This document shows, piece after piece, positions 4,029 to 52,163 of a stretch of 64,000 nucleotides of DNA. The notes under the pieces were generated by a model. The model ran no database searches. It was given only the letters and a program-made list of their open reading frames with translations, and was not told where the DNA came from. Each line of letters begins with the position of its first letter. The first letter of the stretch is position 1. The DNA is from Eubacteriales bacterium (lineage in GTDB: Bacteria > Bacillota > Clostridia > Oscillospirales > CAG-272). The DNA is taken from contig JAZRBV010000050.1 in the NCBI GenBank assembly GCA_045635225.1, positions 2,427 through 66,426 on the forward strand. Direction: 5' to 3'. The position numbers and the translations under genes were made by a program.

Positions 4029-4068
4029 GTACTATGTAATATTGCATTTTGCCGAGGAGGAAACTCTA

Positions 4069-5952: not shown

Positions 5953-6005
5953 ATGCGTGTTAAGAAATTCAATTGTTATGTAGATATACTCTTGTCTTAC
6001 TCCGG

Positions 6006-8860: not shown

Positions 8861-8931
8861 AGAGTTAATGTCACCGATGCGCGTCACTGACCTGTCACTG
8901 CCGCGTGGCAAAACAAAAGGAGAATATAGCT

Positions 8932-31369: not shown

Positions 31370-31513
31370 CCCCTTTTGTAAATTTTTGTCAGTTTATCGC
31401 TGGGTATTGATTTTTTTTGCCGCAGGTGTTATAATGGTATATTATAATGCAGTATATAGTGCGGCATTCACGTGCTATATATTATAATGTAGACTTCATA
31501 AATGGAGAACCCA

Positions 31514-34500
31514 ATGAGAAAAAGAAAAATACTGCTCTCTCTCATCTCCGTCGCGATGACACTGCTTGCGATCTTCGGCGTGGTTTCAACGACCGCTCTG
31601 GCGAGCAGTGAGGAGATAGACTACGACTTCTCGCGAGAGGGCTCGCAGCATACCAGAACGCTTACGACGACCGATATACTCGATGCGATAGAGGGCATCG
31701 AACTCGGTGAGGCAGAGCGCGCCTATCTTCTGGAATACGGCGACACCGAGATAAAATACGAGGACGGTATCACCGCATCCTACGTCAGGGTCGATTACGA
31801 CGGCTCCTCGGTACTGCTCTATGCTTATGAATATAAATACGTTGCCGACAACGGGGTAGAGATCACCTGGACACCCGTGAGCGCGTCTCTTTTCGGTGTT
31901 GAGCAGACGCTGACGCTTGCGGGAGGTGCATACGCCACGAGATTCAAGTCGGTGACCGACGCTGACGAGACCACCGCCGTGGACGTCCGCTACACCCTGG
32001 CGATCACCGTTCATACCGAGACCCTTGAGGATATAGTCAACAAGGCGTACGACGACTCCTTCCTCTGGGAGGATTACATATACGAGCGAGACCTCGAGTA
32101 TAGTGCGGCTGTTGACGAATATCTCTCCGCTAAGGAAAGATTTGACACGTACCTCGCCCTTTTAGCTCAGTACGAGCTCGACGAGCAGGCGTACAACGCC
32201 TATCTTGTTGAGAAGAGAAACTACGATATTGCAGTCAATAAATACAACAAATATCTTGCCGATCTCGCCACCTACGAGGCTGAGGTAAAGGCGCGCGAGG
32301 AATATCTGAAGCTTGACGCGCAGTACAAGCTCGACGCCCAAGAGTACACGAAGTACGAGAACGCCTACGCAAAATACGAGGCGGAGGCTGTGATCTACGC
32401 CGACTATCTTTCGAAGCTCGATAAGTTCAACGCGCATCTTGCTATAATGGAATACGCGCGCACTCCTGTCACCGATATGAACAGAAGCGCATATACCGAT
32501 ATTATGGGCGGCACGGTCGATAAGGTGCTTGCCGAGCGCGACCTGCTACGCGAGCTACACGCACCCGAGCGCGTTATTGATCTCGCCGGCGCCTCGACAC
32601 GAAATCTGCGTACCATCTTTACAGAGTACTACGCGATCGAGAGCGACGTTGCAAAATACGACTATTACAGCAAAAACTATACCGCGATACGCGATAATTT
32701 CGTCAACCTGTTCACCTCGCTCGACTGTCTCTACACGAGCAACGGCGTGCAGGCGGCGATATCTACCGCAGAGACCCTATATCCCGACTCGAACTACGAT
32801 GCGAAATTCCGCATACTGATAGCAAATCTTTACGTGATAGCACACGCCCTGTCTGATACGCCGATAAAGAGCGTGTCGACAAGTCTCATAGGCTCGAAGG
32901 ACACCGTTGCTCCGAGATACAAGAGAGGATATACCTACACCTCCTTTACCATCGACGAGCTTCATCCGAAGACCCTCGCGCAGATCCTCGGCGATGCAAA
33001 ATACGTTAAGGATACCAATAATGCAAAGCCTCTCACAACGGGACACCCCGGCTTCATGGCAGAGCCCGTGCCTCCCGAATTTATGGCACGCCCTACGCCT
33101 CCCGCATACGTTGCGGAGCCTACGGCGCCCGCTATCGTCGCCGATCCCGGCGATGCACCCGCAGAGGTAGCACAGCCTACCGCACCCACCGAGGTGGAGA
33201 AGCCTACGGTACCCGAGGAGTACGTAGCGCCCGAGGTAGTTGGTGCATTGATAGCCGCGCGCGGCGTCACTCTCGTCGAGAGGGACAGAGAATTTGACAC
33301 GCCCGCCGCTATAACCGTAGAAAAGACGGTCAGCAAGCGTTTTGTAAACGTATCCGAGATCGTCGTGGCGTTCCATGATGAGAACGGTCAGCTGATCGAG
33401 CATCACACGATAGATTCGGGCAGTACCGTCAACTTTGAGGGTGATCTGCCGAGAAAGCCCGAGGACGCGAAAGCAGTCTATACCTTTGCCGGCTGGCAGA
33501 AAAAAGACGGCACCCGTGTCGATCTTTCCTCGGTCGAGGACAACGTCGACCTGTATCCCTACTTCCACGAGGACTATAAGTACTACACCGTCACTTGGAT
33601 GGTCGACGGCAACGCTGTTACCGAGGTCCTCCGCTACGGCACTCTGCCGTGCTATTCCGCCGGCACTCCGGAAAAGCCCTCGACTCCTCTCTACGTCTAT
33701 ACCTTCATAGGCTGGGATAAGGAGATCCTCGAGGTCACAGAAGACGTCGTCTATACCGCGCTCTTCGAGGAGGGGGACGTCATTCCCTCCGACGGTGACG
33801 TCACGGTCACCTTTGACGGCAACGACTATCTCGTCGACGCCACCTCGGGACGCAATACCAGATCCCTTGATATTTCGGGCATTCTCGAGCGCTCTGTTGG
33901 ACTTACGGGCGTGAAAATCGTTACACGCTCCGCCACACTCGAGATATCTCCGGCCTCCGTAATGCTCCTCAAGGAGCGCGCGGCGAGCAAGATACACATC
34001 AGCGTCATCACCAACGCGCAGGGCTACTTCAGATACTCGGTCACTGCGGACTCACCCGATGCACGCAACGCACCCGTTGATATCCCCGTCGAGCTTACCG
34101 TACCCCTTACCCGTGAGCTGAATTCCAGAGTTCGTCTGCGAGCGCTATCTCCCGACGGCGGCATCACCTACGTCCGCTACACCGTGGCGGATTCACAGAT
34201 CACGTTCACTGCAAACGTTGGCTACAACTACGAGCTGTGCGAGGAGTATTCGGTCAGTGCGTTCTCGAACGACACCGTGACCTTCACGCTCTCGAGCAGT
34301 GTCGCACTCTACGGTGACGTCGTAAAGGTCGGCGTCGAGCTCGCGCCGGGCGTTATTCTGAAGAGCCTCTACTACGTCGACGGAGATGGCAACGTAGGCG
34401 AGATACGGGCATCCCGTGTATTCGAAATGCCTAAATCCGACGTTACGGTAATGGCTGTTACCGAGCATATCCGCTACACGGTCACGTTTATGAACGGCGA

Positions 34501-34819
34501 CTCGGTATTCACCACCGTCAGCTGTATCTGGGGCGCAATACCCGTTCCTCCCGACACTCCGAAAAAGGCGAGCGACGGTGAGTTCACCTACACCTTTGTC
34601 GGCTGGGAGGAGGACGTATCTCCCGTCACCGGTGATGCCGTATATCACGCGGTGTTCGAGGCGACTCCCATACCCGTTGTGGATGAGCCGGTCAGCACAC
34701 GCCCCTCCATCCTCGAGATGTTCAAGGGCGGCGTTATAGCCGTAGGCGTGTTGCTTTTCATACTCGTCGTATGGGTCGGAACGTCCTGCATTCTCAATGC
34801 CAGAAGGTACCGTTACTGA
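31514..34819 (+). CDS. Large anchored surface protein: Tyr-rich coiled coil, Pro-rich linker, Listeria-Bacteroides (InlB B-type) repeats, C-terminal TM anchor
   Basis: The start was moved to ATG 31514 (GGAG 6 nt upstream). There is a signal peptide. Three ...YTF.GW... repeats are present (YTFAGWQKKDG, YTFIGWDKEI, YTFVGWEEDV). The C-terminus is VIAVGVLLFILVVWVGTSCILNARRYRY. Confidence 0.85.
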   Translation: MRKRKILLSLISVAMTLLAIFGVVSTTALASSEEIDYDFSREGSQHTRTLTTTDILDAIEGIELGEAERAYLLEYGDTEIKYEDGITASYVRVDYDGSSVLLYAYEYKYVADNGVEITWTPVSASLFGVEQTLTLAGGAYATRFKSVTDADETTAVDVRYTLAITVHTETLEDIVNKAYDDSFLWEDYIYERDLEYSAAVDEYLSAKERFDTYLALLAQYELDEQAYNAYLVEKRNYDIAVNKYNKYLADLATYEAEVKAREEYLKLDAQYKLDAQEYTKYENAYAKYEAEAVIYADYLSKLDKFNAHLAIMEYARTPVTDMNRSAYTDIMGGTVDKVLAERDLLRELHAPERVIDLAGASTRNLRTIFTEYYAIESDVAKYDYYSKNYTAIRDNFVNLFTSLDCLYTSNGVQAAISTAETLYPDSNYDAKFRILIANLYVIAHALSDTPIKSVSTSLIGSKDTVAPRYKRGYTYTSFTIDELHPKTLAQILGDAKYVKDTNNAKPLTTGHPGFMAEPVPPEFMARPTPPAYVAEPTAPAIVADPGDAPAEVAQPTAPTEVEKPTVPEEYVAPEVVGALIAARGVTLVERDREFDTPAAITVEKTVSKRFVNVSEIVVAFHDENGQLIEHHTIDSGSTVNFEGDLPRKPEDAKAVYTFAGWQKKDGTRVDLSSVEDNVDLYPYFHEDYKYYTVTWMVDGNAVTEVLRYGTLPCYSAGTPEKPSTPLYVYTFIGWDKEILEVTEDVVYTALFEEGDVIPSDGDVTVTFDGNDYLVDATSGRNTRSLDISGILERSVGLTGVKIVTRSATLEISPASVMLLKERAASKIHISVITNAQGYFRYSVTADSPDARNAPVDIPVELTVPLTRELNSRVRLRALSPDGGITYVRYTVADSQITFTANVGYNYELCEEYSVSAFSNDTVTFTLSSSVALYGDVVKVGVELAPGVILKSLYYVDGDGNVGEIRASRVFEMPKSDVTVMAVTEHIRYTVTFMNGDSVFTTVSCIWGAIPVPPDTPKKASDGEFTYTFVGWEEDVSPVTGDAVYHAVFEATPIPVVDEPVSTRPSILEMFKGGVIAVGVLLFILVVWVGTSCILNARRYRY

Positions 34820-34977: not shown

Positions 34978-35006
34978 TTGATTTTTAACGCCGCACGTGA
35001 TATAAT
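34978..35006 (+). promoter_or_regulatory. SigA-type promoter of the giant gene
   Basis: TTGATT, 17 nt, TATAAT. It lies about 90 nt upstream of the ATG at 35097. RBS AAAGGGG at 35084..35090. Confidence 0.55.
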
Positions 35007-35096
35007 TACTTTATAAAATACGCACGGGTGCGCAAGTAGCGTTAAGCGCGCCCAAGAGTGTTTTGAATTAGTTAATCTTATGTAAAGGGGTAAATC

Positions 35097-38000
35097 ATGA
35101 GAAAGTCAAGAAAGCTAATGACTACCGTAGTCTCGCTCCTTGTCACCTGTATCATGCTTATCGGTACCCTTCTTCCGTCGGTCGCAGCGACCGTTGACGG
35201 CATTGCCGGATGGAAGACCGTGGAGAACGTTCTTAAAGAGGACGCTCCCTCTGCGGGTGGGGAAGTCGAGGGCGGAGTCGATACAGGCTGGCTCGAGATA
35301 GTCTACGGCACGGATGAGAATGGCAAGCAGTTTATTGACGTCATTCTTTCTCCGTCGAAGGAAGAGCTTAAGTCTGTCAGCAAGGCTGAGCTCGTTAGCA
35401 TTCTTACTGCTGTCATTGACGCCGCAAAGGCACTCGTCGTCGACGAGATAATGAACAGCTGGAAGGATGAGAACCTTCCCGACGATCCTACGAGTGATGA
35501 GGGTCTCGGCGATGCGGATTCCGGTTCTATCTGGGAAATAGCACTGAATCTGTACATTGACAACGCCGGCTATACCGGTGACACTGCTGAAGAAAGGTAC
35601 CTCGCATTCTTCGAGGACATCGTAAAGAACGATGCGTCCGTCGAGAAGCTTGTTATCTTTGTACGCGATAAGATCAATCTTGCATTGAGACTTGGTCTTG
35701 TAACCGTTGACGAGCTCAAGGACATCACATCCGAGAAGCTCACCACCATGGTTAATGACCTTATCAACGAATACGTTGACTCTTACGCTAAGGACCACAT
35801 TGGAGATTATATCAATTACGACAAGCTCGATGCAGCTATCAAGGGCTACTTCGAGAACTTCGGTGACGTAAACGCATACGTTCCGAAGGACCTCATTGAG
35901 GAGAAGGTAATTGAGAAGATCGAGGAGGTCCTCAACAATAAGGAAAACCGCGACGAGTACGTTAACGATTACCTTCGCGGACTGCTCACCGATTACTTGG
36001 GCGGTGTAGCGATCGATCCCGCCGTTAAGGCTGAGATCGAGGCAGAGCTCAAGAATATGCTCCTCGGCGATTACTACGAGGAAGTTAAGGAAGAGCTCAC
36101 CGACACGCTTCTTGGAGAGATCCAGGATAGACTCGAGAACGATGCCGAATTCAAGGCGGACGTTGTCGACAAGCTTACTCAGAAGGTTAAGGACGATGCT
36201 GAGTTCAGAGCTGAGATCGCCAAGAAGTTTACCGAACAGGTGAAGACCGATCCCGAGTTCAGAGCCGAGATCGCCGCACAGTTCACCGAGGATCTCAAGG
36301 CTGATCCCGAGTTCAGAGCAGAGATTGCTGCACAGTTTACTCAGGATCTCAAGAATGACGATGAGTTCAGAGCCGAGATCACCGACAAGTTCACAGAACA
36401 GATCACCCCTGAGGTCGTAGCAGACGCTAAGGTTGCGGCTAACGAGGCTGTTACCGATTACCTCGCATACTACAGAGGTGACCGTGACGATCTTCCTCTC
36501 GATGCAGAGGGTTATAAGAAGTTCATCTATGCGGAGCTTGACAACGTTCTTGTTGAGAAGATCCGTGAGGCTTATCCCTCTAGTGAGTTCCCCTACGTTG
36601 ACTTCACCAAGAACGAGCTCCCCCTTATCCGTGAGCACGATCTTCTTGATCTTAAGCCTCAGGTTATGGTTGAGATCAATGCCGTTCTCAATAGCGAAGT
36701 AAACGGTAAGCCTTATCTCGATGACGTAATCGACCAGAACTACGATACTATCGAAGCTGAGATCAGAAAGCAGGTCGAGGCGAAGCTCGCGAGCAACGAG
36801 TATGACGACGAGATCGCAGCAGAGGTTGATAAGATGCTCGCAGGCAGCGAGTTCGACGCTGAGATCACCGCTAAGGTTGAGGAGAAGCTCGCAGGCGACG
36901 AGTTCAATGCCGAGATCGAAGCGAAGGTCAATGAGATGCTCGCAGGCGACGAGTTCGACGATGAGCTGAAAGCTGAGGTTGAGGCGCGTCTTGACGAGTT
37001 CTTCGGCGACGAGCTCGATGCAGAGGCTAAGAGACTCTTCGAGGACGAGATCGACAACGAGATCAGAGAAGAGATCGAGCGCATCTTCGACGGCAACCAC
37101 GACGTTGTCGCTGAGATGAAGAAGTACGTAAGCGAGGACACCCTTCGTGAGAAGATCGAGAACCTCGACGTAACTCAGTTCGGCTTCTCCGACGAGAAGG
37201 TCGACGAGCTCATCAACGATTATCTTCCCGGCTACTTCGCAGATGCTGCGAACAGAGAGAAGGTCATCAAGGAGTTCCTTGGCAAATACGAGACCGTAGA
37301 GGACTATGCACTCGCTAACTACGAGGAGTATAAGGACTATGCGTTCGAGTACGCGCTCGACGAGATGTTCGGCATTACTCGCGCAGAGTTCGACAACAGA
37401 CTCGCATACATAGCAGGTAAGCTTGCTGCAGCCGCACAGGCAGAGGCAGAGGCGTATGAGGCTCTTCCCGAGGCTCCCACCCTCACCCCCGAGGATCTTC
37501 TCAAGGAGATCGAGAGCGTTACCGTTGACGGCAACGTTGTTCTCACCGTTGAGACGGTCGCAGGCAAGGTTACTCCCAAGATCGACTTTAACGCGGTCAA
37601 GGCGCTGATCGCAGCGCTTCCCAGCCTCTCCGAGATCACCAAGATGGAGACTCTCGCGCTTGATTGGGATATCGCGATCGCTACCACCTTCGGCGACACC
37701 GCATTCAACGTAGAGATCGAGCTTGCTACCTTCGACGATGAGGTCAAGAAGGCTATCCAGCTCTTCATCGACCACGTTAAGATCGGTATCACCGAGGACA
37801 ACACACTCTCCGTTAGCATAACTCTCCCCGAGATCGTCACCGAGCTCTTCAATCGCGCTTGCGCAACCGGCAGATTCTCTCCCGCGCTCAAGCAGAAGGT
37901 ATTCAAGCTCATGACCGCGACTCCTGCAGATTTCATCGAGATCTACAAGAGCTTCACCTTCGAGGACTTTATCGCTATTATCGAGGCTGCTGACCTTGAG

Positions 38001-41000
38001 CGTCTCGTAAACAATAAGTATTACGACGCAGCAACAGGTAAGCTCATCGACAATCCTTACGTTGACAGAGCGCTTCAGAACAAGCTCGTCGACTACATCA
38101 AAAATTATGTATCTATCCCCGAGCTTGACGGCGAGGACGTAGATAAGGTTCTTGAGTTTGTGGGCAACCTCACCAACGAGAAGATCCTCAACTACGTTGA
38201 GTCGAAGGAGTGGCTCTTCGACAAGGCTATGGCTAAGTCCATCCACTACATCGACGCACTCGTAGCTAAGATCCCCGATAGATTTATCAACAATCCCTGC
38301 TTCATGTCTATGTTCTACGAGGGACCCGAGAAGTTCGGCTTCGAGCAGTCTCTTACCGTAGACCTCTATGAGCTTGAGCTCGAGCTCCGCAAGAACCTCC
38401 CCGAGAGATTCGCTAAGTACGAGTCCGCTATCATCTTCGTGATGGGCGAGCTCAGAAGCCGCTTCGGCGACTACGTGACTGCAGGCATCGACCTTAACGT
38501 AACCGTTCCCGACGTATCCAAGATCACCTTCATGGTAGGTGACGAGGTTTATCTCGAGGGCGTCCTTCCCAACGGCGCGTACGTTCTCCAGTTCGTAGAC
38601 CTCAAGGAATACGAGGGCAGAGAAGTGCTCGGCTGGGTAGACGAGAACGGCAATAAGGTTACCTACAAGCCCGACGGTGAGACTGTGCTCTACGCAGTTC
38701 TCGAGGAGTATGCGAGCGCTGAGTTCGCTATCACCGCGGATGCGGCATTCACCGTTGATAACGGCACCTATACCTTCGTTTACGACGGTCAGACTCATAC
38801 TCTTACCGTAGCTCCCACGTCCGCAGGTCTTACCTCCGACGACGTTACCGTAACCTGGTATAAAGATGCGATTTCTGCTGAAAATATCGTGGCAGAAGGC
38901 GCGACCCTTACTCTTGGCAGCCTCGCTGATGCGGGCACGTACTACTACACCGTAACGGTTGCAGACGATGCTAAGTTTGATCCTAAGTATTACGAGAGCG
39001 AGGCAGTTACTGTTGTAGCTCTTGCACCCATTACCGACGCTGATATCGCAGTTGATATCACCGTCACCGACAAGGCAGGAAACGTTATCGTTCCCGCGGA
39101 CCTTGTTTACGTTCCCGGTGAGGAGTACACCTTCACCGCAGACGTTACCGTTGCGAACACTGCTCTTGCGGATCTTCCCTTTGGTTCGTATAGCTATCAG
39201 TGGTACGTAAGCGATACGTCCGACTTCGCTGATGCTGTTAAGATCGACGGCGCTACCGATTCGACCTACACCGTCAGCGGCAATGCACAGGCAACGAAGT
39301 ACTACTTCTGTGAGTTCGTATTCGAGTACGATACGGTCACCGCAAGCTCCGTTGACCACGTCGGCTTCGGCGTAGAGAAGGCTGGCATTGACGCATCTAC
39401 CTTCTGGGCAGTAGCAGACGGCACGGTATATATCTACGGTGAGACGGTATCCGTTCTCGCGGCAGATTTTGCAGAGAAGTACGCAGGTCTTCTTAACGTT
39501 GAGTACGGCGCGGGCTTCGGCACCGAGGTTGGCACCGCAACTGCGAAGATCACTCTCGTTGACTCCGATAACTACTACATGTATCTTGACGGTGCGACCG
39601 TTACCGAGTCCACCCTCTCGATCACCGTTATCCCCGCGCTTCAGTTCGCTCTTACCGCGAGCGACATCACCGCTATCTACGATCCCGCTACCAACTACGA
39701 TCTCACCGCACTTGAGAGCATTGCTCTCCTCGGCACCACCGGTACCGACGGCGTCAGCGTAGTTTGGGAGAGACTCGTTGACGGCAAGTGGGTAGAGGCT
39801 ACTGCTCTCACTCTCGCTAACGTTGCTGACAGCGGCGAGTACAGAGCAACTGCGACCTACGTGCAGGCAGGCAAGACTCAGACCGCCTCCGCAAGCGTTA
39901 AGGTTACCGTAACTCCTAAGGAAGTTATGTATACCGTAAACGCAGAGTGGTGGAACGTTGTCGCCGACTTCACCTATAACGGTAAGAACCACGCGATTTC
40001 TCAGGACTTCTTCAAGACCTGGGAGGTTGCAGCTAACATTCCCGAGAACGTAAGTATCGCATATAGCTTCGCTATCGCTAACTATCTTCCCGGTACTTAC
40101 AGCGTAACTGCTACCATCAGTCCTCTGAACGGTGACGATAACTACGTTTACTCGGTATCCGAAACTCATTACACTCTCCACTACACCGTAAAGAAGGCTT
40201 CCTTCGATCTCGGTGCTCTTAAGTGGTACGTTAACAACGGCACCGAGACCAAGCTTCTCGAGAGTGCTCTCGTTAACGGCAAGCTTCCCGCAGGTCCCGC
40301 ATACACCGTATTCCTCGGCGGATACGAGAACGTATACGGCGATCTCGTTCCCAGCTACTCCACCAACGGTGCTAACGGCTATACCGACGCATCGAAGCCT
40401 GTTAAGTATCCCTCCGGCAACGGCGGCTACGAAACCTACTTCGACGGCTTCACCGTAGTTGTTGAGATCGACGGTGATACCTTCGAGCATAAGCTCAAGG
40501 ATTGCTACGACGTGACCGGCACCATCACCGCCGATGCGGTTAAGTGGGATATTGCAGGTCTCATCTTCACCTGTGGCGACGTTATCATCATCGACTCCGC
40601 CGCAGCGCTCCTCGGCTACGAGGTCAGCGTCAGCGTGAAGGACGTTTCCGCAAACGGTGAGCACAAGATCGTTAATACCAAGACCTATACTCCCGTATAC
40701 GAGTACGTTATCACGGTTACCCTTGACGGCGAGGCAGTAGACGCTCCCGCAGGTGACTACGTGATCATCATACCCGCACTTGAGAATAAGGAGAGCTTCC
40801 TTATCTCTTATAACAGCAACGGCTCCGGCGCCGCAATGGTTGACGAAACCGCTGTGGACGGTGCGTTCGAGTTCAACGCGACCGAGACCGCCTTCGGTGG
40901 TACTAAGTTTGCGGTTGCTACTCTCTATACTCCCGTAACTCCTCCCGAGCCTGAGTACGATCCTGTACACAAGACCGAGGACGGAACCGTTATCGTAACC

Positions 41001-44000
41001 GATAAGAATAATACTCTTAAGGGTTATCAGATCTCCGTCACCGAAAGCATTTACAAAGGTCAGCCGCAGACTCTTGACGGTACCCACTATCTTGTTAAGG
41101 CAGGCTACCGCATTGCCTTCGTTGATAAGCTCGGTGTAGAGAAGGAGTATACCGCTGAGGATCTCTTCGAGGTATCCGTTCTCATCCCCGGTGAGTTTGT
41201 CGATACCAAATTCACAGTGCTTGTGATCGACGGCGATACCGTCACAGTCGTTGACGTTGACGTTGTAAACGGCAGAGCAGTATTTACTGCATCCGCACTC
41301 TCTACCGTCAACTTCGCTATCGTGACCTCCGGGCCCATCGATCCTCCCACACCTCCCGAGTACGATATCAACCGTACCGAGACCTTCGTTGATGCGAACG
41401 GTCAGGAGTACACCGTAGTCGTAGTCGACACCGACAAGAAGCTCGAGGCGTACGAGACTATGATAGTCGAGGCGCGCAACGACCTCGCGGATTCTACCGA
41501 GTTCGGCACCATCGACGGCGTAAACTACGTCGGACACTTCGGCTTCAACCTTCGCTTCGTTGATGTGAATACCGGCGCTACTTATTCCGGCACCGATTCC
41601 TTCAGCGTAACCGTTACCGTTCCTAACCTTCTCGGTGCAAACTTCGTGCTTCTCGGCTACAACGGCACCGCATGGGAGGTCGTAGCAGACGGTACCGATT
41701 ACGATGTATCGAATAATACCGTAACCTTCGAGACCACCCTCTTCTCCGTATTCGCATTTGCAGAGGAGACTATTTCCGATGACGATTACGATGGCATCCA
41801 CAACGGTGGTATTAAGGAAAACGGCGAGATCATCTATAACGTAACCGTTCTTGATGACCTTACCGAAACTCTCAAGGGCTACACCGTCATCGTTAACAGC
41901 GGTGTGGTTAAAGAGCAGCCTTACGTCATCGGCGAGAATCAGTATAAGGCACTCTTCGCATACGAGATCGGCTTCATTGACGAAAACTACGTCCTGAGAA
42001 CCGAGTATAGCGGCGCAAATCAGTTCAGCGTAACGGTTGACGTTCCCACCGCACTTCAGGGCAAGACCCTTTACGTCATCGGTGAGAACGCGGACGGCAC
42101 TGCAGAGCTTCTCGCTTCCACAAGCGGCGTTGCAGGTGCGACGGTACGCTTCTTCACCACTCACTTCAACTACACGAACTTCGTTCTTGCAGAGCTCGTT
42201 TCGGGCGATGCACCCGATCATAAGATCGAGCATAACGGATCCTTCGATCACTTCGACGGAACCACTAACAGCGTTACCGTATATGACCCGAGCTACGTTC
42301 TCGAGGATTATACCATGAACGTTGGTACTATTCCCTCGACACTTACGTCTGTTACCGTAGGCAATAACGATTACATCGTTCTCGGCGGCTTCAGCATTCT
42401 GTTCAGACTTGACTTCGAAGCCTATGACGGAACCGACAGCACCTTCACCGTGAACGTAACCGTTCCCGAGGTGCTCAGAGCTCAGAACCTCGTTCTTCTC
42501 GCGAAGAGAGGCGGCGAGTGGACCGTAGTGGTTGACAGCTATGGCCACACCGAGTCTATTCAGTTCCAGACCAACACCTTCGGTACCTTCGCATTTGCTA
42601 AGGTTAAGACCGGCGGCGGTGTTACTCCTCCCGATGAGTACGACGGTATCCAGAGCGGTACTGTTGATTACACCAACGGTGCAGAGGGTGACCTGCTCAA
42701 CGTCACAGTCCTTGACACTAATAAGGTTCTTGAGGATTACGGTATCACCGTAGGCGCTATCAATAGCCTTATCGGTAGCAAGGTAGAGGCTGACGGAGGC
42801 AACTACAAGATCCTCGTTGGCTTCTCGATCGGCTTCGCAAACATCGACGGCGACCCCTACGTGGGCACCGAGTCCTTCAGCGTCAGCATCAAGACTCCCG
42901 GCTCTCTCAGAGGTAAGACTCTCGTAGTTCTTGGCAGAACTGCTGATGGCTGGCAGGTTCTTACGACCGTTAGTGATGCAGGCGAGCAGATCGCATTCAC
43001 CACTACCTACTTCTCCGACTTCGCTATTGCCGAGAGCTACGCTCCCTATCAGGGACAGCAACAGGGCAGTATGAATCACGAGAACGTAGATTACAACGTA
43101 ACCATCGTTGACCCCAATCACGTTCTTGATGGTCACCAGATCGTAGTTTCTCACGCCGCAGACGTTCCCACCGAGGTACAGCTCGGCGAGACCAAGTACA
43201 ACGTACACCTGAGCTACGACATCTCCTTCGGAGATCTCGACCTTAGCGAGAACGACAAGAAATTTACCGTAACTCTCGACGTACCCGTTTCTCTCAGAGA
43301 CCGTAAGCTCACAGTTATTCACTATGCGGCAGACGGTACCGTAGAGGATATGAACGCACAGTACGTCAGAGGCTCCCAGTACATCTCCTTCGAGACGACT
43401 CACTTCTCTATCTACGCGATAGCAGAGAAGCAGAGCGATACTCAGGGCGGTGACGATAGTGGACTTGGTATTAATCCCTGGCACATCGTCATTGCTGTAG
43501 TAGCAGTTCTCGTCATTCTTCTCATCGTTCTTCTCATTCTCAGAAGACGCGGTGGCAGAAGCATAGGCGGATCCAGACGCATTGGACGCATCGGACGCTC
43601 CGGTTACTCGAGACGCGGACGCGGCGGACGCGGCGGATACCGTTATGACGACCGTCACTACGACGTAATTGATACCATCGAGCTCTACGACGATCTTAAG
43701 AGTGCTGAGTGGAAGGCACCCACCACTGTAAGGATCAAGGCAGCTGAGCCCGCTGAGATCAAGCTCAAGGATACCGCTCCTATCGCTAACGGTCAGGCTA
43801 GGTCCAGAACCGAGACCATCACCGTAACCGAGAGAAAGGTACCCACCACCGATTACAGATCTAAGGCTACCGGCTCCGGTCTTGTTACCGAGATGCCCGA
43901 TACCAGAGTCGCAATAGTTCCTGAGAGAGTTGGTTCTACCACTGTTATCAAGCCTGTTATCAACACCGTACCCGTTGCACAGCCCACTGTTGTTGCAGCT

Positions 44001-46799
44001 CCCGCTGTTGTTGCAGAGCCTGTAGTAGTTGCCGAGCCTATCAAGACTAAGAAGGCTAAGAAGGTTAACGTAGACGGCCTTGTAACCATCGCCGCTCCCG
44101 TAGCACCTGTTGTTAAGGCTCCTGTAGCACCTGCCGCTCCCGTAGCACCTGCAGCACCCGTTGCTCCTGCTCCCGTAGCTGCTCCCGCTCCCGCACCTGT
44201 TGCTCCCGCTCCTGTAGTTGTAGCACCTGTTGCAGAGCCTGCTAAGTTCGAGCCTATCGCTAAGCCTATTGCGAAGCCTCTTGTAATGCCCGAGGCTCCC
44301 ATCATTCTCACTAAGTCTGCCGAGACTGCAGAGATCGTTACTGCAGCACCCGTCGCGACCGTTGTTGAGCCTGTTGTAGAGGAGACTCCCGCAGTACCCG
44401 TAGCACCCGTGGCTACTGCACCCGCAGAGCCCGTACGCATCGTCGTTACCGAGCCTGCACCTGCCGCAGCACCCGCCGCTCCCGCAGCGACCATTGTTGC
44501 CGCAGCAGCTGCTAACGTTGCACCCGTAGTAGTTGAGCCTATCACCATAGCTCAGCCTCCCGTTGTAATAGTTGCAGATCCCGTAATTCCTCCCATTAAG
44601 GTCGTTCTTGGCAATACCGAGCCTGAGGAAGAGGTCGTAGAGACCGAGCCCGAGGTAATCGAGGAGATCGTCGAGGAGATCGTTGAGGAGGTAGCTCCCG
44701 TAGAAGAAGAGACTCCCGTCGAGGAAGAAGCTCCCGTCGAGGAAGAGGCTCCCGCAGAGGAAGAGGCTCCCGCAGAGGAAGAAGCTCCCGTCGAGGAAGA
44801 AACTCCCGTCGAGGAAGAAGCTCCCGTAGAGGAAGAGGCTCCCGTAGAGGAAGAAACTCCCGCTGAGGAAGAAGCTCCCGTAGAGGAAGAGGCTCCCGCA
44901 GAGGAAGAGGCTCCCGTAGAGGAAGAGGCTCCCGTAGAGGAAGAGGCTCCCGTCGAGGAAGAGACTCCCGTCGAGGAAGAGGCTCCCGCAGAGGAGGAGG
45001 CTCCCGCAGAGGAAGAGGCTCCCGCAGAGGAAGAGGCTCCCATTGAGGAGATCATCATCGAGGTTGAACCCATCGAGGATGCTCCTGCAGAGGAGGCTAC
45101 CGAGATTGTAGAGCAGCCCGTCGTTGTACCTCACGGTCCCGATGAGGGTACCATGATCATCAACGGTCAGGTAGTACTCGTTCACTACAGAAGCTCGTTC
45201 ATGTCCAGACTCATCCAGTCCGAGGGCGCAGTTCAGGATTACTACAACGTGATCAAGAACGTACTTCTCTCCTACAAGGGTGTTAAGGCGAGAACCAGCT
45301 GGAGCTGTGAGTCCTTCAATAAGGGCAGAATCCAGTGCTCCAAGATCAACGTAAAGGGCAGAACCCTTACCGTATATCTCGCACTCGATCCTAAGGAATA
45401 CGCAGAATCGAAGTATCACTTCACCGATGTATCCGGCAAGCCTAAGTTCGAAAAGGTTCCTATGCTTGTCAAGGTAAGAAGCGACAGAGCTCTCAAGTAT
45501 GCTCTCGAGCTCATCGAGGAAATGATGAACAAGCTTGAGATACCTCAGGGTGAGATCCAGAACGTTGATTACCATATGCCTTACGAGGAGACCGAGGCTC
45601 TCGTTGAGCGCGATCTCGTAAAGGTTATCCTTCCCGCAGGCGTAACTCTTGATGATAATGCTAACGTTGTTAAGCTCGACGTTGGTGAGCTCATCGAGAA
45701 TGCAAAGGCAGAGGCTGATGCGAGAGCAGAGGCTGAGCCCGAGGTCGTTGAGACCGTCGAGGAAGCTCCCGTTGAGGAAGCTCTCGTCGAGGAAGCTCCC
45801 GTCGAGGAAACTCCCGTTGAGGAAGAGACCCCCGCAATCGAGGATCTCGTAGCAGACGAGACCACCGAGGACACCAACACCGATGACGTGAACGTAGGAT
45901 CGCTTCTCAAGTTCATTGGCGACGGCGTTGATGAGACCGAGACCGTCGAGGAGGCAGTTGAGGAAGAGGCTGTTGAGGCTGAGCCCGAGGTTGTCGAGGA
46001 GGCAGTTGAGGAAGAGGCTGTTGAGGCTGAACCCGAGGTTGTCGAGGAGGCAGTCGAGGAAGAGGTCGTTGAGGCTGAGCCCGAGGTTGTCGAGGAGGCA
46101 GTTGAGGAAGAGGTCGTTGAGGCTGAACCCGAGGTTGTCGAGGAGACAGTTGAGGAAGAGGCTGTTGAGGCTGAACCCGAGGTTGTCGAGGAGACAGTTG
46201 AGGAAGAGGTCGTTGAGGCTGAACCCGAGGTTGTCGAGGAGACAGTCGAGGAAGAGGTCGTTGAGGCTGAACCCGAGGTTGTCGAGGAGACAGTTGAGGA
46301 AGAGGTCGTTGAGGCTGAACCCGAGGTTGTCGAGGAGACAGTTGAGGAAGAGGTCGTTGAGGCTGAACCCGAGGTTGTCGAGGAGACAGTTGAGGAAGAG
46401 GTCGTTGAGGCTGAACCCGAGGTTACCGCCGAGGAGGCTATGATGACTCCCGACGAGGAGGGCAGAGTCCACGTTGACGCAATTCACGCAGACGAGCTCA
46501 TAACCGACGAGGAGGCTGAGGCAAGCATCGAGGTAGTTAAGACCGCTGCTAAGAAGTCCGGCGGCAAGATGGTAGAGATCAACATCGACGTCATCTGCGA
46601 GAACTTCGAGGACGGCGACACCGTAACTCTCGACTCACTCAAGGCAAAGAGACTTGTTCCCGCAAACGCAGGCAGACTTAAGGTTCTTGCTCGCGGCATT
46701 ATGACGAAGAACAACATCGTCGTAGTTGCTGACAAGTTCTCGCTCTCCGCTGTAAAGATGATCACCCTCGCGGGCGGTCGTGCCGAGCAGCAGAAGTAA
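35097..46799 (+). CDS. Giant (3,900 aa) single-pass membrane protein with a uL15-like C-terminal domain
   Basis: The ORF is uninterrupted. A signal peptide is present (MRKSRKLMTTVVSLLVTCIMLIGTLLPSVAA). It is followed by an acidic helical region, Ig-like repeats and seven ~136-aa tandem modules. A TM helix (WHIVIAVVAVLVILLIVLLIL) is followed by RRRGG..., then a Pro/Ala/Val-rich segment and acidic repeats. The last ~75 aa align to the ribosomal protein uL15 C-terminus. Confidence 0.9.
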   Translation: MRKSRKLMTTVVSLLVTCIMLIGTLLPSVAATVDGIAGWKTVENVLKEDAPSAGGEVEGGVDTGWLEIVYGTDENGKQFIDVILSPSKEELKSVSKAELVSILTAVIDAAKALVVDEIMNSWKDENLPDDPTSDEGLGDADSGSIWEIALNLYIDNAGYTGDTAEERYLAFFEDIVKNDASVEKLVIFVRDKINLALRLGLVTVDELKDITSEKLTTMVNDLINEYVDSYAKDHIGDYINYDKLDAAIKGYFENFGDVNAYVPKDLIEEKVIEKIEEVLNNKENRDEYVNDYLRGLLTDYLGGVAIDPAVKAEIEAELKNMLLGDYYEEVKEELTDTLLGEIQDRLENDAEFKADVVDKLTQKVKDDAEFRAEIAKKFTEQVKTDPEFRAEIAAQFTEDLKADPEFRAEIAAQFTQDLKNDDEFRAEITDKFTEQITPEVVADAKVAANEAVTDYLAYYRGDRDDLPLDAEGYKKFIYAELDNVLVEKIREAYPSSEFPYVDFTKNELPLIREHDLLDLKPQVMVEINAVLNSEVNGKPYLDDVIDQNYDTIEAEIRKQVEAKLASNEYDDEIAAEVDKMLAGSEFDAEITAKVEEKLAGDEFNAEIEAKVNEMLAGDEFDDELKAEVEARLDEFFGDELDAEAKRLFEDEIDNEIREEIERIFDGNHDVVAEMKKYVSEDTLREKIENLDVTQFGFSDEKVDELINDYLPGYFADAANREKVIKEFLGKYETVEDYALANYEEYKDYAFEYALDEMFGITRAEFDNRLAYIAGKLAAAAQAEAEAYEALPEAPTLTPEDLLKEIESVTVDGNVVLTVETVAGKVTPKIDFNAVKALIAALPSLSEITKMETLALDWDIAIATTFGDTAFNVEIELATFDDEVKKAIQLFIDHVKIGITEDNTLSVSITLPEIVTELFNRACATGRFSPALKQKVFKLMTATPADFIEIYKSFTFEDFIAIIEAADLERLVNNKYYDAATGKLIDNPYVDRALQNKLVDYIKNYVSIPELDGEDVDKVLEFVGNLTNEKILNYVESKEWLFDKAMAKSIHYIDALVAKIPDRFINNPCFMSMFYEGPEKFGFEQSLTVDLYELELELRKNLPERFAKYESAIIFVMGELRSRFGDYVTAGIDLNVTVPDVSKITFMVGDEVYLEGVLPNGAYVLQFVDLKEYEGREVLGWVDENGNKVTYKPDGETVLYAVLEEYASAEFAITADAAFTVDNGTYTFVYDGQTHTLTVAPTSAGLTSDDVTVTWYKDAISAENIVAEGATLTLGSLADAGTYYYTVTVADDAKFDPKYYESEAVTVVALAPITDADIAVDITVTDKAGNVIVPADLVYVPGEEYTFTADVTVANTALADLPFGSYSYQWYVSDTSDFADAVKIDGATDSTYTVSGNAQATKYYFCEFVFEYDTVTASSVDHVGFGVEKAGIDASTFWAVADGTVYIYGETVSVLAADFAEKYAGLLNVEYGAGFGTEVGTATAKITLVDSDNYYMYLDGATVTESTLSITVIPALQFALTASDITAIYDPATNYDLTALESIALLGTTGTDGVSVVWERLVDGKWVEATALTLANVADSGEYRATATYVQAGKTQTASASVKVTVTPKEVMYTVNAEWWNVVADFTYNGKNHAISQDFFKTWEVAANIPENVSIAYSFAIANYLPGTYSVTATISPLNGDDNYVYSVSETHYTLHYTVKKASFDLGALKWYVNNGTETKLLESALVNGKLPAGPAYTVFLGGYENVYGDLVPSYSTNGANGYTDASKPVKYPSGNGGYETYFDGFTVVVEIDGDTFEHKLKDCYDVTGTITADAVKWDIAGLIFTCGDVIIIDSAAALLGYEVSVSVKDVSANGEHKIVNTKTYTPVYEYVITVTLDGEAVDAPAGDYVIIIPALENKESFLISYNSNGSGAAMVDETAVDGAFEFNATETAFGGTKFAVATLYTPVTPPEPEYDPVHKTEDGTVIVTDKNNTLKGYQISVTESIYKGQPQTLDGTHYLVKAGYRIAFVDKLGVEKEYTAEDLFEVSVLIPGEFVDTKFTVLVIDGDTVTVVDVDVVNGRAVFTASALSTVNFAIVTSGPIDPPTPPEYDINRTETFVDANGQEYTVVVVDTDKKLEAYETMIVEARNDLADSTEFGTIDGVNYVGHFGFNLRFVDVNTGATYSGTDSFSVTVTVPNLLGANFVLLGYNGTAWEVVADGTDYDVSNNTVTFETTLFSVFAFAEETISDDDYDGIHNGGIKENGEIIYNVTVLDDLTETLKGYTVIVNSGVVKEQPYVIGENQYKALFAYEIGFIDENYVLRTEYSGANQFSVTVDVPTALQGKTLYVIGENADGTAELLASTSGVAGATVRFFTTHFNYTNFVLAELVSGDAPDHKIEHNGSFDHFDGTTNSVTVYDPSYVLEDYTMNVGTIPSTLTSVTVGNNDYIVLGGFSILFRLDFEAYDGTDSTFTVNVTVPEVLRAQNLVLLAKRGGEWTVVVDSYGHTESIQFQTNTFGTFAFAKVKTGGGVTPPDEYDGIQSGTVDYTNGAEGDLLNVTVLDTNKVLEDYGITVGAINSLIGSKVEADGGNYKILVGFSIGFANIDGDPYVGTESFSVSIKTPGSLRGKTLVVLGRTADGWQVLTTVSDAGEQIAFTTTYFSDFAIAESYAPYQGQQQGSMNHENVDYNVTIVDPNHVLDGHQIVVSHAADVPTEVQLGETKYNVHLSYDISFGDLDLSENDKKFTVTLDVPVSLRDRKLTVIHYAADGTVEDMNAQYVRGSQYISFETTHFSIYAIAEKQSDTQGGDDSGLGINPWHIVIAVVAVLVILLIVLLILRRRGGRSIGGSRRIGRIGRSGYSRRGRGGRGGYRYDDRHYDVIDTIELYDDLKSAEWKAPTTVRIKAAEPAEIKLKDTAPIANGQARSRTETITVTERKVPTTDYRSKATGSGLVTEMPDTRVAIVPERVGSTTVIKPVINTVPVAQPTVVAAPAVVAEPVVVAEPIKTKKAKKVNVDGLVTIAAPVAPVVKAPVAPAAPVAPAAPVAPAPVAAPAPAPVAPAPVVVAPVAEPAKFEPIAKPIAKPLVMPEAPIILTKSAETAEIVTAAPVATVVEPVVEETPAVPVAPVATAPAEPVRIVVTEPAPAAAPAAPAATIVAAAAANVAPVVVEPITIAQPPVVIVADPVIPPIKVVLGNTEPEEEVVETEPEVIEEIVEEIVEEVAPVEEETPVEEEAPVEEEAPAEEEAPAEEEAPVEEETPVEEEAPVEEEAPVEEETPAEEEAPVEEEAPAEEEAPVEEEAPVEEEAPVEEETPVEEEAPAEEEAPAEEEAPAEEEAPIEEIIIEVEPIEDAPAEEATEIVEQPVVVPHGPDEGTMIINGQVVLVHYRSSFMSRLIQSEGAVQDYYNVIKNVLLSYKGVKARTSWSCESFNKGRIQCSKINVKGRTLTVYLALDPKEYAESKYHFTDVSGKPKFEKVPMLVKVRSDRALKYALELIEEMMNKLEIPQGEIQNVDYHMPYEETEALVERDLVKVILPAGVTLDDNANVVKLDVGELIENAKAEADARAEAEPEVVETVEEAPVEEALVEEAPVEETPVEEETPAIEDLVADETTEDTNTDDVNVGSLLKFIGDGVDETETVEEAVEEEAVEAEPEVVEEAVEEEAVEAEPEVVEEAVEEEVVEAEPEVVEEAVEEEVVEAEPEVVEETVEEEAVEAEPEVVEETVEEEVVEAEPEVVEETVEEEVVEAEPEVVEETVEEEVVEAEPEVVEETVEEEVVEAEPEVVEETVEEEVVEAEPEVTAEEAMMTPDEEGRVHVDAIHADELITDEEAEASIEVVKTAAKKSGGKMVEINIDVICENFEDGDTVTLDSLKAKRLVPANAGRLKVLARGIMTKNNIVVVADKFSLSAVKMITLAGGRAEQQK
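44694..45050 (+). repeat. 18-nt tandem repeat (~20 copies) encoding (A/T)P(V/A)EEE
   Basis: GCTCCCGTCGAGGAAGAA-type units are repeated head to tail, inside the giant CDS. Confidence 0.9.
45939..46424 (+). repeat. 48-nt tandem repeat (~10 copies) encoding EPEVVEE(A/T)VEEE(A/V)VEA
   Basis: Nine full units run from 45981 to 46412, with partial units at both ends. The 3' units are almost identical at the nucleotide level. Confidence 0.9.
46569..46796 (+). other. uL15 (ribosomal protein L15) C-terminal-like domain at the end of the giant protein
   Basis: MVEINIDVICENFEDGDTVTLDSLKAKRLVPANAGRLKVLARGIMTKNNIVVVADKFSLSAVKMITLAGGRAEQQK was aligned by eye with the bacterial uL15 C-terminus (VNLD.[11 protein letters not shown]...G.I......VKILG.G.L.KKLTVKA.KFS.SA.E.IEAAGG). 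Confidence 0.7.
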
Positions 46800-46851
46800 T
46801 TAAAAAAATCTCTCCTTCGCCGAGTGATCGGCGAGGGGAGAGATGAAAATA

Positions 46852-46886
46852 AAAAAGGATGTGATCCTCGGATCGCATCCTTTTTT
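46852..46886. terminator. Bidirectional terminator after the giant gene
   Basis: Stem GGATGTGATCC / GGATCGCATCC is flanked by AAAAAA and TTTTTT. A second hairpin (46809..46843) precedes it. Confidence 0.7.
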
Positions 46887-46948
46887 ATTTAACGGTAACA
46901 ATATTTAATCTTTAATTCAGCCGTTACGGCGGTTGATATAGCGGCGGA

Positions 46949-47515
46949 TCAGAGCGTCACCTTGAAATACACGGAATATGTATCCCCCTCGTCGCCACAT
47001 GATCTTGTGACGGTGAGGTGATCGTATTCCTTGAGGGTGGCGTCGCCCGATATGATCTCGCGCACATCCGTGTCGCTTACACCGTAGTAGCGAAGAATTC
47101 GGGCTACGGTGCGCTTGCCGCCGCTTACGATATCCCGATAGACGTTGATCTCGTGCTCGTCACCCACATTGCTCCAGGAGAAGATGTCGCCGTCGGAGCT
47201 GCCCGTTACCTCAAGGCGTAGCTTGTGTCTCGGGCGTACTGTTACGACTAGCGTTTTGCCCTCCTCGAGCGTGGTCGCTTCCTTAGTCGAGTAGGGACCT
47301 ATCGAGCGGATCTCCTCGGTTGAGAGCTTCACGATACGGAATAGATATATCAGTATAAATGCTATACCGCCGCCCGATGCGATTATCAGGGGATAGAGCT
47401 TTAACGCGCCCGTCATAATGCCGTTATTCATTATCGAAACTATGAGCACGATCACCGGCGGTATCAACGTCAGATACATTCTCGGCTTAGTACAGAAGAA
47501 ATATAGATTCTTCAT
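46949..47515 (-). CDS. Hypothetical membrane protein (two TM helices plus a soluble domain)
   Basis: 188 aa. The start codon overlaps the stop of the GH2 gene (TAATG). Confidence 0.6.
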   Translation of the reverse strand: MKNLYFFCTKPRMYLTLIPPVIVLIVSIMNNGIMTGALKLYPLIIASGGGIAFILIYLFRIVKLSTEEIRSIGPYSTKEATTLEEGKTLVVTVRPRHKLRLEVTGSSDGDIFSWSNVGDEHEINVYRDIVSGGKRTVARILRYYGVSDTDVREIISGDATLKEYDHLTVTRSCGDEGDTYSVYFKVTL

Positions 47516-50403: not shown

Positions 50404-50653
50404 AAGTGAAACCGTCCTTTCATAGGGTATCAAAACTATTTTATCACCTTTTGTGGGAAAATACAACACGTTTCACGTAAAAAGTATATCAAAGATAAAA
50501 ATTTATATATTTTTCACAAATTTGCGCCCGATTTTTTTACTATAAATAAACCTAAAATAGTCTAAATTCGCTTGAAAAAGCCTCGCGCGTGTGTTAAAAT
50601 AGTAATGTTGATCATACGACACTGTGAAAACCCACGACGAAAGGATGTGTAAA

Positions 50654-52138: not shown

Positions 52139-52163
52139 GTACATCTAAGAAAGGACGGAAAAT

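Follow-up and report, generated by a model that had tools for sequence, protein, structure and literature searches.

What does a giant bacterial surface protein require a cytoplasmic tail of 1,085 amino acids for? The question is raised by a single gene at 35097..46799 (+) of the stretch of DNA analysed here (64,000 nucleotides of contig JAZRBV010000050.1 from an Eubacteriales bacterium; termed the window below, with all coordinates counted from its first letter), which codes for a 3,900-residue protein with a predicted signal peptide, a very large ectodomain, one transmembrane (TM) helix and a tail (aa 2816-3900) that carries a globular module and a domain related to the ribosomal protein uL15. 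The evidence is best explained overall, with a probability of about one half, by a conserved docking tail that is tethered to the membrane beneath an exchangeable surface fibre.

The open reading frame (ORF) is intact and ATG-started, as had been read in a preliminary description of this DNA (one 11.7-kb ORF of 3,900 aa); taking about three stop codons per 64, the chance of a 3,900-codon open frame is approximately e^-187, and 35097..46799 is one real gene, which belongs to an uncultured Clostridia bacterium of the gut and has a type I membrane protein as its product. In a hydropathy scan of the whole protein, strongly hydrophobic segments were restricted to aa 4-34 and aa 2795-2815. The first of them belongs to a predicted Sec-type signal peptide (aa 1-31, 35097..35189 (+); MRKSRK n-region, hydrophobic core with a Kyte-Doolittle value of 2.33, end at SVAA/T), and an N-terminal hydrophobic segment was also present in 39 of 48 TM-containing homologous ORFs. 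The second is the predicted single TM helix (IVIAVVAVLVILLIVLLIL, 43479..43541 (+), Kyte-Doolittle 3.9), directly followed by RRRGGRS at the start of a basic, RGG-rich juxtamembrane or stop-transfer segment with a net charge of +10 (43542..43676 (+)). Both the N-terminal signal peptide and the one TM helix with its adjoining RRRGGRS had been recognised at these places before, and they are the sole strong hydrophobic segments of the protein. In most of the 58 ORFs examined in this respect, a Lys/Arg cluster lies directly C-terminal of the hydrophobic core, and the outer flank of the TM helix is acidic and succeeds the HFS[IV]YAI strand of the last beta module. A sortase motif of the LPXTG type (LP.[TSA]G) was found nowhere in the 3,900 residues.

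Based on hydropathy, the positive-inside rule and comparative evidence, we infer with good support a single-pass type I protein, the 1,085-aa tail of which is cytoplasmic: it is placed inside the cell because of the Lys/Arg clusters after the TM helix, because the tail module also occurs in TM-less proteins and behind multi-pass and two-TM anchors, and because of the homology to the cytoplasmic uL15. The architecture and topology described here are held with high confidence, and the earlier view of a single-pass giant protein with a huge ectodomain and a cytoplasmic tail of about 1,080 aa is retained with this small change in length. An extracellular position of the tail, which would require that the apolar segment does not span the membrane or that the protein has the opposite orientation, is very improbable; Pro/Ala/Val-rich and acidic repeats are indeed also known from the wall-spanning regions of Gram-positive surface proteins, but the segment is strongly apolar over at least 21 residues (the Kyte-Doolittle value of 3.9 given above), the Lys/Arg clusters stand C-terminal of the TM helix across most of the family, the tail domains are found in proteins devoid of signal peptide and TM helix, uL15 itself is cytoplasmic, and in the two-TM and multi-pass variants the module is positioned on the same side as their N-termini. 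Two juxtamembrane features deserve mention. A subclade-conserved motif, ELYDDLKSAEW (43680..43712 (+); general form (L/I)YD(D/R)L+xxEW), is common to the related loci L004, L005 and L006. The same three loci, the closest relatives compared, are devoid of a 27-aa RGG/RGR-rich insertion (43566-43646, aa 2824-2850), which resembles eukaryotic RGG RNA-binding motifs and is not a family feature.

The comparison with these relatives sets the tail apart from the remainder of the protein. With the closest one, L004, identity amounts to 82% in the tail module and 78% in the uL15-like domain, whereas the ectodomain (about 1,600 aa in L004 versus 2,790 aa in the window) reaches 30-36% identity in patches only. 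In L006 (8312-11413; metagenome-assembled genome (MAG) RGIG2083, goat colon), the extracellular part between signal peptide and TM helix measures about 10 residues, and the tail of 960 aa shares 78% identity with the window in its module and 73% in its uL15-like domain; the locus is syntenic, with downstream genes for a GH2 enzyme, a CAAX-protease and a DUF1846 protein that are 65%, 42% and 83% identical, and it also misses the gene for a 1,105-aa surface protein that is located upstream in the window. According to these sequence comparisons, the tail is the best-conserved and family-defining part of the protein, and the ectodomain is a fast-evolving and probably exchangeable addition; the repeat units are lineage-specific and differ in copy number between species. 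The tail appears to be an autonomous, membrane-tethered cytoplasmic unit, since its domains are 78-82% identical while the ectodomain diverges and since L006 keeps the tail without an ectodomain.

Within the tail, all of the elements that had been listed for it beforehand (a Pro/Ala/Val-rich stretch, two acidic arrays, a globular module and a uL15-like end) were present. A low-complexity spacer rich in Pro, Ala and Val, recognised by its composition, extends over about 240 residues (aa 2961-3200, 43977..44696 (+)); its most hydrophobic stretches have Kyte-Doolittle values of only about 1.8, contain proline and charged residues, and are thus not TM helices. It is followed by a first acidic array (44694..45049 (+)), in which an 18-bp unit is repeated 19.8 times and encodes EEAPVE repeats; across aa 3201-3335 the net charge is -65. 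Between the module and the uL15-like end, a second acidic region (45754..46424 (+); net charge -112 over aa 3531-3790) is composed of a 15-bp unit in 4.8 copies (45754-45825) and a 48-bp unit in 10 copies at 96% identity (45945-46424). All array periods at the DNA level are divisible by three, so that an error in copy number could not break the frame. A further acidic segment immediately N-terminal of the uL15-like domain (HVDAIHADELITDEEAEASIEVV, 46467..46562 (+)) is conserved in the alignment of homologues.

Near-perfect repeats of this kind raise the suspicion that a surface-protein gene and a cytoplasmic uL15-like gene were mis-joined in the assembly. A genomic scan for the module, with one genome per species, gave 288 stretches, the best 79 loci of which were examined, and each genomic match was extended from stop to stop, which resulted in 54 complete, gap-free ORFs of 495-3,508 aa among species-representative MAGs (the window protein is the largest in the genomic set examined). 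The N-to-C order seen in the window was found in 48 of these 54 ORFs, a strong TM helix preceding the module without a change of frame. All 79 loci belong to gut Clostridia MAGs from herbivore or human gut, labelled Clostridia, Eubacteriales, Oscillospiraceae or 'uncultured Ruminococcus'. A profile search that covered 1.84 billion cluster representatives (50%-identity clusters) returned 3,826 clusters at E<=1e-10, of which 1,945 also passed E<=1e-30; proteins of 1,500-3,000 aa that have module and uL15-like end at their very C-terminus are numerous among them, and the gap-free metagenome fragment P0037 reads ...TSHFSIYALVEV, TM helix, KMKHSE..., module. The fused architecture is a conserved family trait and not an assembly artefact, because the 48 complete ORFs, P0037 and the profile-search clusters share it. 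The family varies in tail length (253-1,261 aa), in the number of modules (two in 18 loci, five to seven in some proteins) and in the uL15-like end, which is present in 40 of 74 loci that are complete at the 3' side. We propose to define it by a membrane anchor, an acidic or Pro-rich leash and a basic module, with or without the uL15-like end; in the window, the module lies C-terminal to the TM anchor in the same ORF and is joined to it by a low-complexity acidic and Pro-rich link.

It is true that the 48-bp array (10 copies, 96%) is of the sort that breaks other assemblies, and that many short tail proteins are deposited as if they stood alone. Thus, the frames of the syntenic scaffolds L002 and L003 are interrupted, and only by 100-N gaps inside repeats (the order in L002 is last stalk module, TM helix, KKRKG, EEAPVEE repeats, gap, module, uL15-like end), and the scaffold of L083, which has 86-91% DNA identity to the window, breaks in the 48-bp array, likewise at a 100-N gap. 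A mis-joined gene is nevertheless extremely improbable: the same order in one frame recurs in 48 independent assemblies of other species and in the gap-free P0037, every array period is a multiple of three, the strong codon bias extends over the whole ORF with not one TTA, CTA or TCA codon over 3,790 consecutive codons, and the short database proteins owe their starts to contig ends, N-gaps or the non-conserved Met of SFMSRLIQ. The last point also answers the objection, anticipated in the preliminary description, that homologues might reveal the tail as a separate gene, as the separate tails turned out to be fragments produced by gene calling.

Close database homologues of the module amount to 48 and have the look of stand-alone proteins of 130-335 aa. 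The short 'uL15' proteins of 75-166 aa were rejected as separate genes, since they are fragments cut off at N-gaps or called from a Met inside the frame. The Met within SFMSRLIQ was likewise rejected as an alternative start, as Thr, Glu, Ala, Tyr and Leu also occur at that position. One candidate for a free-standing protein of module and uL15-like end, L001 (P0041), is ambiguous and was not counted: its contig ends inside EEPQPV repeats, and an in-frame TAA is located at nt 4-6. In public databases, P0010, P0041, P0017, P0047, P0205 and P0215 bear the misleading names 'uL15 family ribosomal protein', 'ribosomal protein L15/L18E' or 'predicted transport protein', the latter being the JGI name for relatives; these names are artefacts of the PF00828 match in combination with fragmented gene calls.

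Other contexts of the module were observed as well. In L065 and L066 it is joined by acidic repeats to a multi-pass anchor, and in L056, as likewise in L057, L053, L054 and L026, to a two-TM anchor of the DUF5305 type. Soluble relatives devoid of TM helix and signal peptide (L061, L063, L068, L076 and L081) begin with a conserved domain of about 400 aa that has weak similarity to DUF2357, followed by a coiled coil rich in Glu and Arg and by one or two copies of the module; after an acidic linker, they end in another conserved domain, which bears the motif IPYTRxQYLALPRKKKK.

The globular module itself (aa 3340-3530, 45114..45686 (+)) is predicted to consist of a beta-hairpin and an alpha/beta sandwich (AF2 model: pLDDT 87.4, pTM 0.81). 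Its core (aa 3355-3480) is basic, with a net charge of +9, and the invariant or nearly invariant positions among 28 aligned members (38-75% identical to the window module) are mostly Arg, Lys, Tyr and Phe, with R60, R72, Y101 and R125 (module numbering) among the invariant ones. The window copy of the module did not match any Pfam family even at E<=10 and does not reach the gathering score of DUF5655 (PF18899), that of the relative L077 attains 18.7 bits against a PF18899 cut-off of 24 bits (E 0.0019), and sequence and profile searches with the module against the PDB gave matches to the uL15 part only. In a Foldseek comparison of the predicted structure with BFVD, the entry D9ZNF6 (E 1.4e-4) and a phage protein annotated as 'DUF5655 domain-containing protein' (E 6.2e-4, TM-scores 0.44/0.37) were found, both with probability 1.0; the matches in the PDB were weak, with YjbR (2fki; probability 0.97, E 0.055) as the best and YdhG/DUF1801 (2oc6) and COG5646 (2i8d) besides, at TM-scores of 0.35-0.52. 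Sequence similarity was moreover found between the module and PDC-S18, a PADLOC candidate, whose C-terminal third is the part that aligns (E 6e-7 with the window copy, 2.6e-12 with that of L077). These several weak lines, from sequence and from the structural model, agree in suggesting a divergent domain that is distantly related to DUF5655, YjbR and YdhG. The predicted fold may be akin to the alpha+beta folds of the DUF5655, YjbR, YdhG and frataxin-like kind, but differs from DUF5655 and YjbR by an additional N-terminal beta-hairpin and a conserved C-terminal extension (DYHMPYE..LV.R.LVKVILP), and also by its tethering to membrane anchors via acidic repeats.

The similarity to PDC-S18, together with the fact that the best structural matches are phage-encoded DUF5655-like proteins, calls to mind a function in phage-host conflict, in which the fibre would act as receptor or decoy and the module would sense or bind the incoming nucleic acid, either in superinfection exclusion or in a defence at the site of entry. 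The hypervariable ectodomain, as would be expected of a phage-exposed structure, and the TM-less relatives with their weak DUF2357-like N-terminal domain would fit. However, the PDC systems are untested 'guilt-by-embedding' defence candidates (bioRxiv 10.1101/2024.01.29.577857), an effector domain (nuclease, NADase, pore or the like) was not detected in the tail with Pfam, NCBIfam or PADLOC, the conserved neighbours are surface and membrane proteins rather than defence genes, and tblastn of the module against the plasmids of PLSDB and the phages of INPHARED gave no match. In sum, we consider a phage-related role quite improbable.

The C-terminal end of the tail (aa 3823-3900, 46563..46796 (+)) is the only part of the protein that is recognised above threshold by Pfam and NCBIfam, and the family is accordingly not covered by a curated model beyond this end. 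PF00828 matches at aa 3827-3897 over its full profile (positions 1-72; E 2.5e-10, 41.1 bits versus a cut-off of 21.5 bits), whereas the full-length equivalog TIGR01071 (rplO_bact) is aligned at positions 71-143 only and scores 31.3 bits versus a cut-off of 77.95 bits. In solved bacterial uL15 chains, the counterpart of the domain is the stretch of residues ~72-144, with the chains of Firmicutes giving the best alignments; counted from the alignment, about 37% of the positions agree with a solved uL15, those of the KVL-G and FS-SA-I-AGG signatures among them. Compared with uL15, which is a free protein of about 145 aa encoded in the spc operon, the window copy forms the C-terminus of a 3,900-aa membrane protein and misses the N-terminal ~70 residues, rich in Gly, Arg and Lys, that thread into the 23S rRNA; it has a net charge of +3, and the genes flanking it in the window encode surface and membrane proteins and a GH2 enzyme, with no spc operon context. 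In terms of sequence, the uL15-like end already noted in the preliminary description is a genuine uL15 C-terminal-domain homologue, but a paralogous domain and not a ribosomal protein, as it scores below the equivalog cut-off, has no N-terminal extension and is encoded outside the ribosomal context. The more general statement that the tail contains RNA- or ribosome-type modules holds for this end, and does not hold for the globular module, which is probably a divergent DUF5655/YjbR-like domain, nor for the RGG-rich segment, which the family does not share.

Would the tail need a specific partner at all? It could also be conceived as a passive anchor or biogenesis aid without a specific ligand, in which a stop-transfer sequence and a 'stopper' hold the long fibre, the acidic repeats form a brush and the piece of uL15 is merely exapted. 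The wide variation in tail length (253-1,261 aa) and repeat number and the dispensability of the uL15-like end in many members would be in line with such a role, and giant TM-anchored surface proteins without LPXTG do exist, e.g. Ebh (PMC4856396). Against this stands the degree of constraint, which exceeds the needs of a stopper (folded domains 78-82% identical versus about 30% in the ectodomains), as well as the specific invariant Arg, Lys and Tyr residues across the 28 aligned members, the retention of the tail in L006, where there is no fibre to hold, and the existence of TM-less family members. A passive anchor is hence regarded as an unlikely, though not negligible, explanation.

The docking-tail explanation would take the following form. 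Outside the cell, a modular fibre of an acidic helical head, a presumably beta-rich region and seven beta-sandwich stalk modules is anchored by the single TM helix in place of a sortase motif, with a basic stop-transfer cluster on the inner side. Inside, disordered Pro/Ala/Val-rich and poly-acidic spacers of several hundred residues carry two small, basic globular domains. The tail would represent an autonomous docking arm whose domains, on polyanionic leashes below the membrane, bind a cytoplasmic partner; the acidic leashes may serve as spacers or as competing pseudo-substrates. The ectodomain would be a surface coat or adhesin that is grafted onto the conserved tether and diversifies under surface-directed selection, without providing a signalling input. 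The partner would most plausibly be a nucleic acid or a ribonucleoprotein, i.e. rRNA, the ribosome or an assembly intermediate. This assignment of the ligand class is tentative and regarded as less likely than not; it is drawn from the uL15 ancestry, the YjbR/DUF5655-like fold and the distribution of charges, in which the basic module core (+9) and the uL15-like domain (+3) contrast with their flanking arrays (-65 and -112). Both this charge pattern and the invariant Arg, Lys, Tyr and Phe residues of the module are suggestive as pointers to the class of ligand. The most specific version, a membrane-to-ribonucleoprotein tether in which the uL15 paralogue and the DUF5655-like domain capture rRNA, uL15-free 50S intermediates or other RNA or DNA at the inner face of the membrane, is doubtful and considered to be rather improbable in this precise form.

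Several points weigh against this explanation or parts of it. The ligand is a pure inference. Neither a basic charge nor conserved aromatic residues point to nucleic-acid binding in particular, the matches of the module to solved structures are weak (best E 0.055, TM-scores 0.35-0.52), and an established function for DUF5655, YjbR/YdhG-like domains or PDC-S18 was not found in the literature. It is unlikely that mature ribosomes are bound at the canonical uL15 site, which is already occupied in them and for which the rRNA-anchoring N-terminal extension would be missing. Furthermore, the uL15-like end is absent from 34 of the 74 3'-complete loci, so that the module can fulfil its role without it. 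Finally, L006 could be a decaying remnant rather than a functional tail protein, though the conservation of its domains argues otherwise.

The single-pass layout, the large ectodomain, the conserved cytoplasmic domains and the juxtamembrane (L/I)YD(D/R)L+xxEW motif, conserved in the subclade, could also be those of an outside-in signalling receptor, in which an ectodomain ligand or a mechanical load would act through the TM helix and alter the binding by the tail domains. The preliminary description had considered such an outside-in coupling; it is disfavoured here and judged improbable. Neither Pfam nor NCBIfam detected a kinase, helix-turn-helix (HTH), anti-sigma, cyclase or other output domain in the tail, PF00828 being the only match; conformational coupling is implausible, as the first folded domain is separated from the TM helix by a disordered stretch of hundreds of residues; L006 keeps the tail with only about 10 extracellular residues; the module is found also behind multi-pass anchors and in soluble, TM-less proteins; and it is the tails that are conserved, not the ectodomains.

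The ectodomain of the window protein starts with an acidic, mostly helical head (aa 32-1140, 35190..38516 (+); net charge -136), in which both types of repeats that had been described for a region of about 1,100 aa were recovered: a 54-bp unit in 3.9 copies at 36194-36405, encoding the 18-aa DxEFRAEIAxxFTExxK, and a 51/102-bp unit at 36772-36984, encoding the 17-aa AGxEFDAEI. The head is 24-36% identical to that of relatives, in patches, and is not placeable by name: its Pfam matches are sub-threshold (DUF445, E 1.5e-4) and were not used, and a homologue search with aa 800-1500 scored nothing among the 8,000 candidates listed. It passes into a region rich in Thr, Val, Ala and Gly (aa 1141-1821, 38517..40559 (+)), which is presumed to be beta-rich and has an Flg_new-like start and the YDG-like motifs FVYDGQTHTLTV and FTYNGKNHAIS. 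The region had been labelled Ig/MBG-like; its presence stands, while the label finds weak support in an Ig_7 match (Pfam, E 0.01), which was not used, and in a YDG domain in the relative L069 (E 4e-7). The weak Pfam matches to DUF445, Nif11, Ig_7 and CBM53 that were obtained with the whole protein and with six segments were set aside altogether.

The stalk is composed of seven divergent tandem modules of 131-145 aa each (40560..43466 (+); 17-36% pairwise identity), which agrees with the seven modules of about 136 aa reported before apart from the corrected boundaries. For module 6, the AF2 model (pLDDT 89.8) exhibits a 10-strand beta-sandwich, and Foldseek against the PDB found no match better than E 0.1; module 7 terminates in the family-wide HFS[IV]YAI motif just N-terminal of the TM helix, which is kept in homologues. 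Judged by their sequences, the stalk modules are old and divergent and therefore pose no assembly risk.

Expression signals were located on both sides of the gene, as had been claimed for its promoter, its ribosome binding site (RBS) and its tandem terminators. The 277-nt intergenic gap upstream holds a sigma-70-like promoter site (34978..35006 (+); TTGATT-17 nt-TATAAT with an extended -10 TG, 10/12 matches), which is the top-scoring one in the region, the total count of promoter-like sites across the region being not above chance. A direct reading of the sequence gives the RBS AAAGGGG at 35084..35090 (+), 6 nt 5' of the ATG. The giant gene is separated from the convergent downstream gene by two strong terminator hairpins in tandem (46808..46890, no strand assigned; dG -54.7 kcal/mol, z = -10.2); they cover 46808-46844 and 46847-46890, and a U-run comes after the second one. 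A scan of the window with Rfam gave no match. The giant gene has the strongest codon bias among the 16 window genes measured (Nc 36.4 versus 41-54 in the 15 others); 95% of its Lys codons are AAG, and TTA, CTA and TCA together account for 0.8 per 1,000 codons, whereas 14 of the other 15 genes have 6.5-37 per 1,000 and the DUF5058 gene, with its 273 codons, has none. Because of this codon bias, the gene is probably highly expressed. An antisense frame of 3,790 codons (35115..46487 (-)) is open in the same codon register because the sense gene contains no TTA, CTA or TCA over that stretch; as a by-product of the codon bias it was rejected as a gene. Gene callers annotate such antisense frames in relatives, e.g. 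in L083 (2..1342 (-)) and L003 (5456..6772 (-)).

Directly upstream and on the same strand, a 1,105-aa surface protein (31502..34819 (+)) with signal peptide, coiled coil, Flg_new-like repeats, C-terminal TM helix and short tail is encoded, an arrangement present in 34 of the 79 loci; downstream and mostly convergent in 42 of the 79 loci, a 188-aa protein with two N-terminal TM helices follows (46949..47515 (-)). Pfam, NCBIfam and PADLOC assigned neither of the two to a family, apart from the sub-threshold Flg_new in the 1,105-aa protein. Further downstream, a cluster of genes for DUF1846, DUF5058, a 223-aa protein and an M20 peptidase (50624-55107) is 71-83% identical in L004, L006, L008 and L083 where present and serves as a synteny marker; its DUF1846 gene is conserved more widely. 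A heparinase II/III-like protein (8905-10929 (+)) and the GH2 enzyme (47515-49239 (-)) fit a glycan-degrading gut organism. A patch of low GC content at 3997-6533 (0.42 versus about 0.53 elsewhere), probably a mobile insertion, encodes a protein of the Fic/DOC family (3997-4968 (+)) and, in two ORFs (6006-6533 (-) and 5104-5952 (-)), a transposase of the IS3 type.

Among known systems, the staphylococcal type of giant protein represented by Ebh and Embp is the nearest in layout: like Ebh, which has a secretion signal and a TM anchor instead of LPXTG (PMC4856396), the window protein combines a signal, a giant repetitive ectodomain and a TM anchor. Unlike this type, the window protein is devoid of FIVAR, GA and DUF1542 repeats (Pfam, E<=0.1 for the whole protein and E<=10 for segments), and its tail of 1,085 aa with two conserved domains is its best-conserved part. 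The cytoplasmic segment of Ebh, by comparison, is presumably short and without a conserved folded domain. The earlier remark that giant adhesins end at their anchor is therefore roughly right, with Ebh as an example, and the large, conserved, domain-bearing tail is the new element here. Sortase-anchored adhesins differ by their LPXTG motif and by a short basic tail, and single-pass signalling proteins (anti-sigma factors, sensor kinases, one-component receptors) by a recognisable output domain. Low-complexity, charged segments act as extended spacers in titin (PEVK), TonB (Glu-Pro/Lys-Pro) and MamJ (acidic repeats); the spacers of the window protein, which are expected to be disordered, likewise link a membrane anchor to distal folded domains, but this is an analogy without sequence homology, and they are cytoplasmic rather than periplasmic or sarcomeric. 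In integrin and cadherin receptors, a variable adhesive outside is connected by a single TM helix to a conserved tail that docks intracellular partners; here, too, the similarity is functional and not one of descent, and L006 indicates that a tail of the window type can stand alone. The statement that this architecture has no described function agrees with the literature, in which nothing relevant was found on the architecture, on PF00828 fusions, on DUF5655 or on PDC-S18; in the literature and family libraries searched, the combination of a surface fibre with a tail of DUF5655-like domain and uL15 paralogue is undescribed.

The cytoplasmic ends of giant surface proteins are usually trivial, while in the present family the intracellular tail is under the strongest constraint, and half a ribosomal protein has been reused in a non-ribosomal, membrane-tethered setting. 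For annotation, the misnamed fragments and antisense calls can distort ribosomal-marker counts and functional profiles of MAGs. As a natural variant without ectodomain, L006 offers a ready comparison for the function of the tail. If it is true that the tail binds ribosomes or RNA, this would represent a new mode of membrane-cytoplasm organisation in bacteria; were the tether to ribonucleoproteins to prove correct, this clade of gut Clostridia would possess a new way to organise translation or to intercept nucleic acid at the membrane, and in its giant forms the capture would take place directly beneath the surface fibre, in a link between outside and inside that may be called, by loose analogy, integrin-like.

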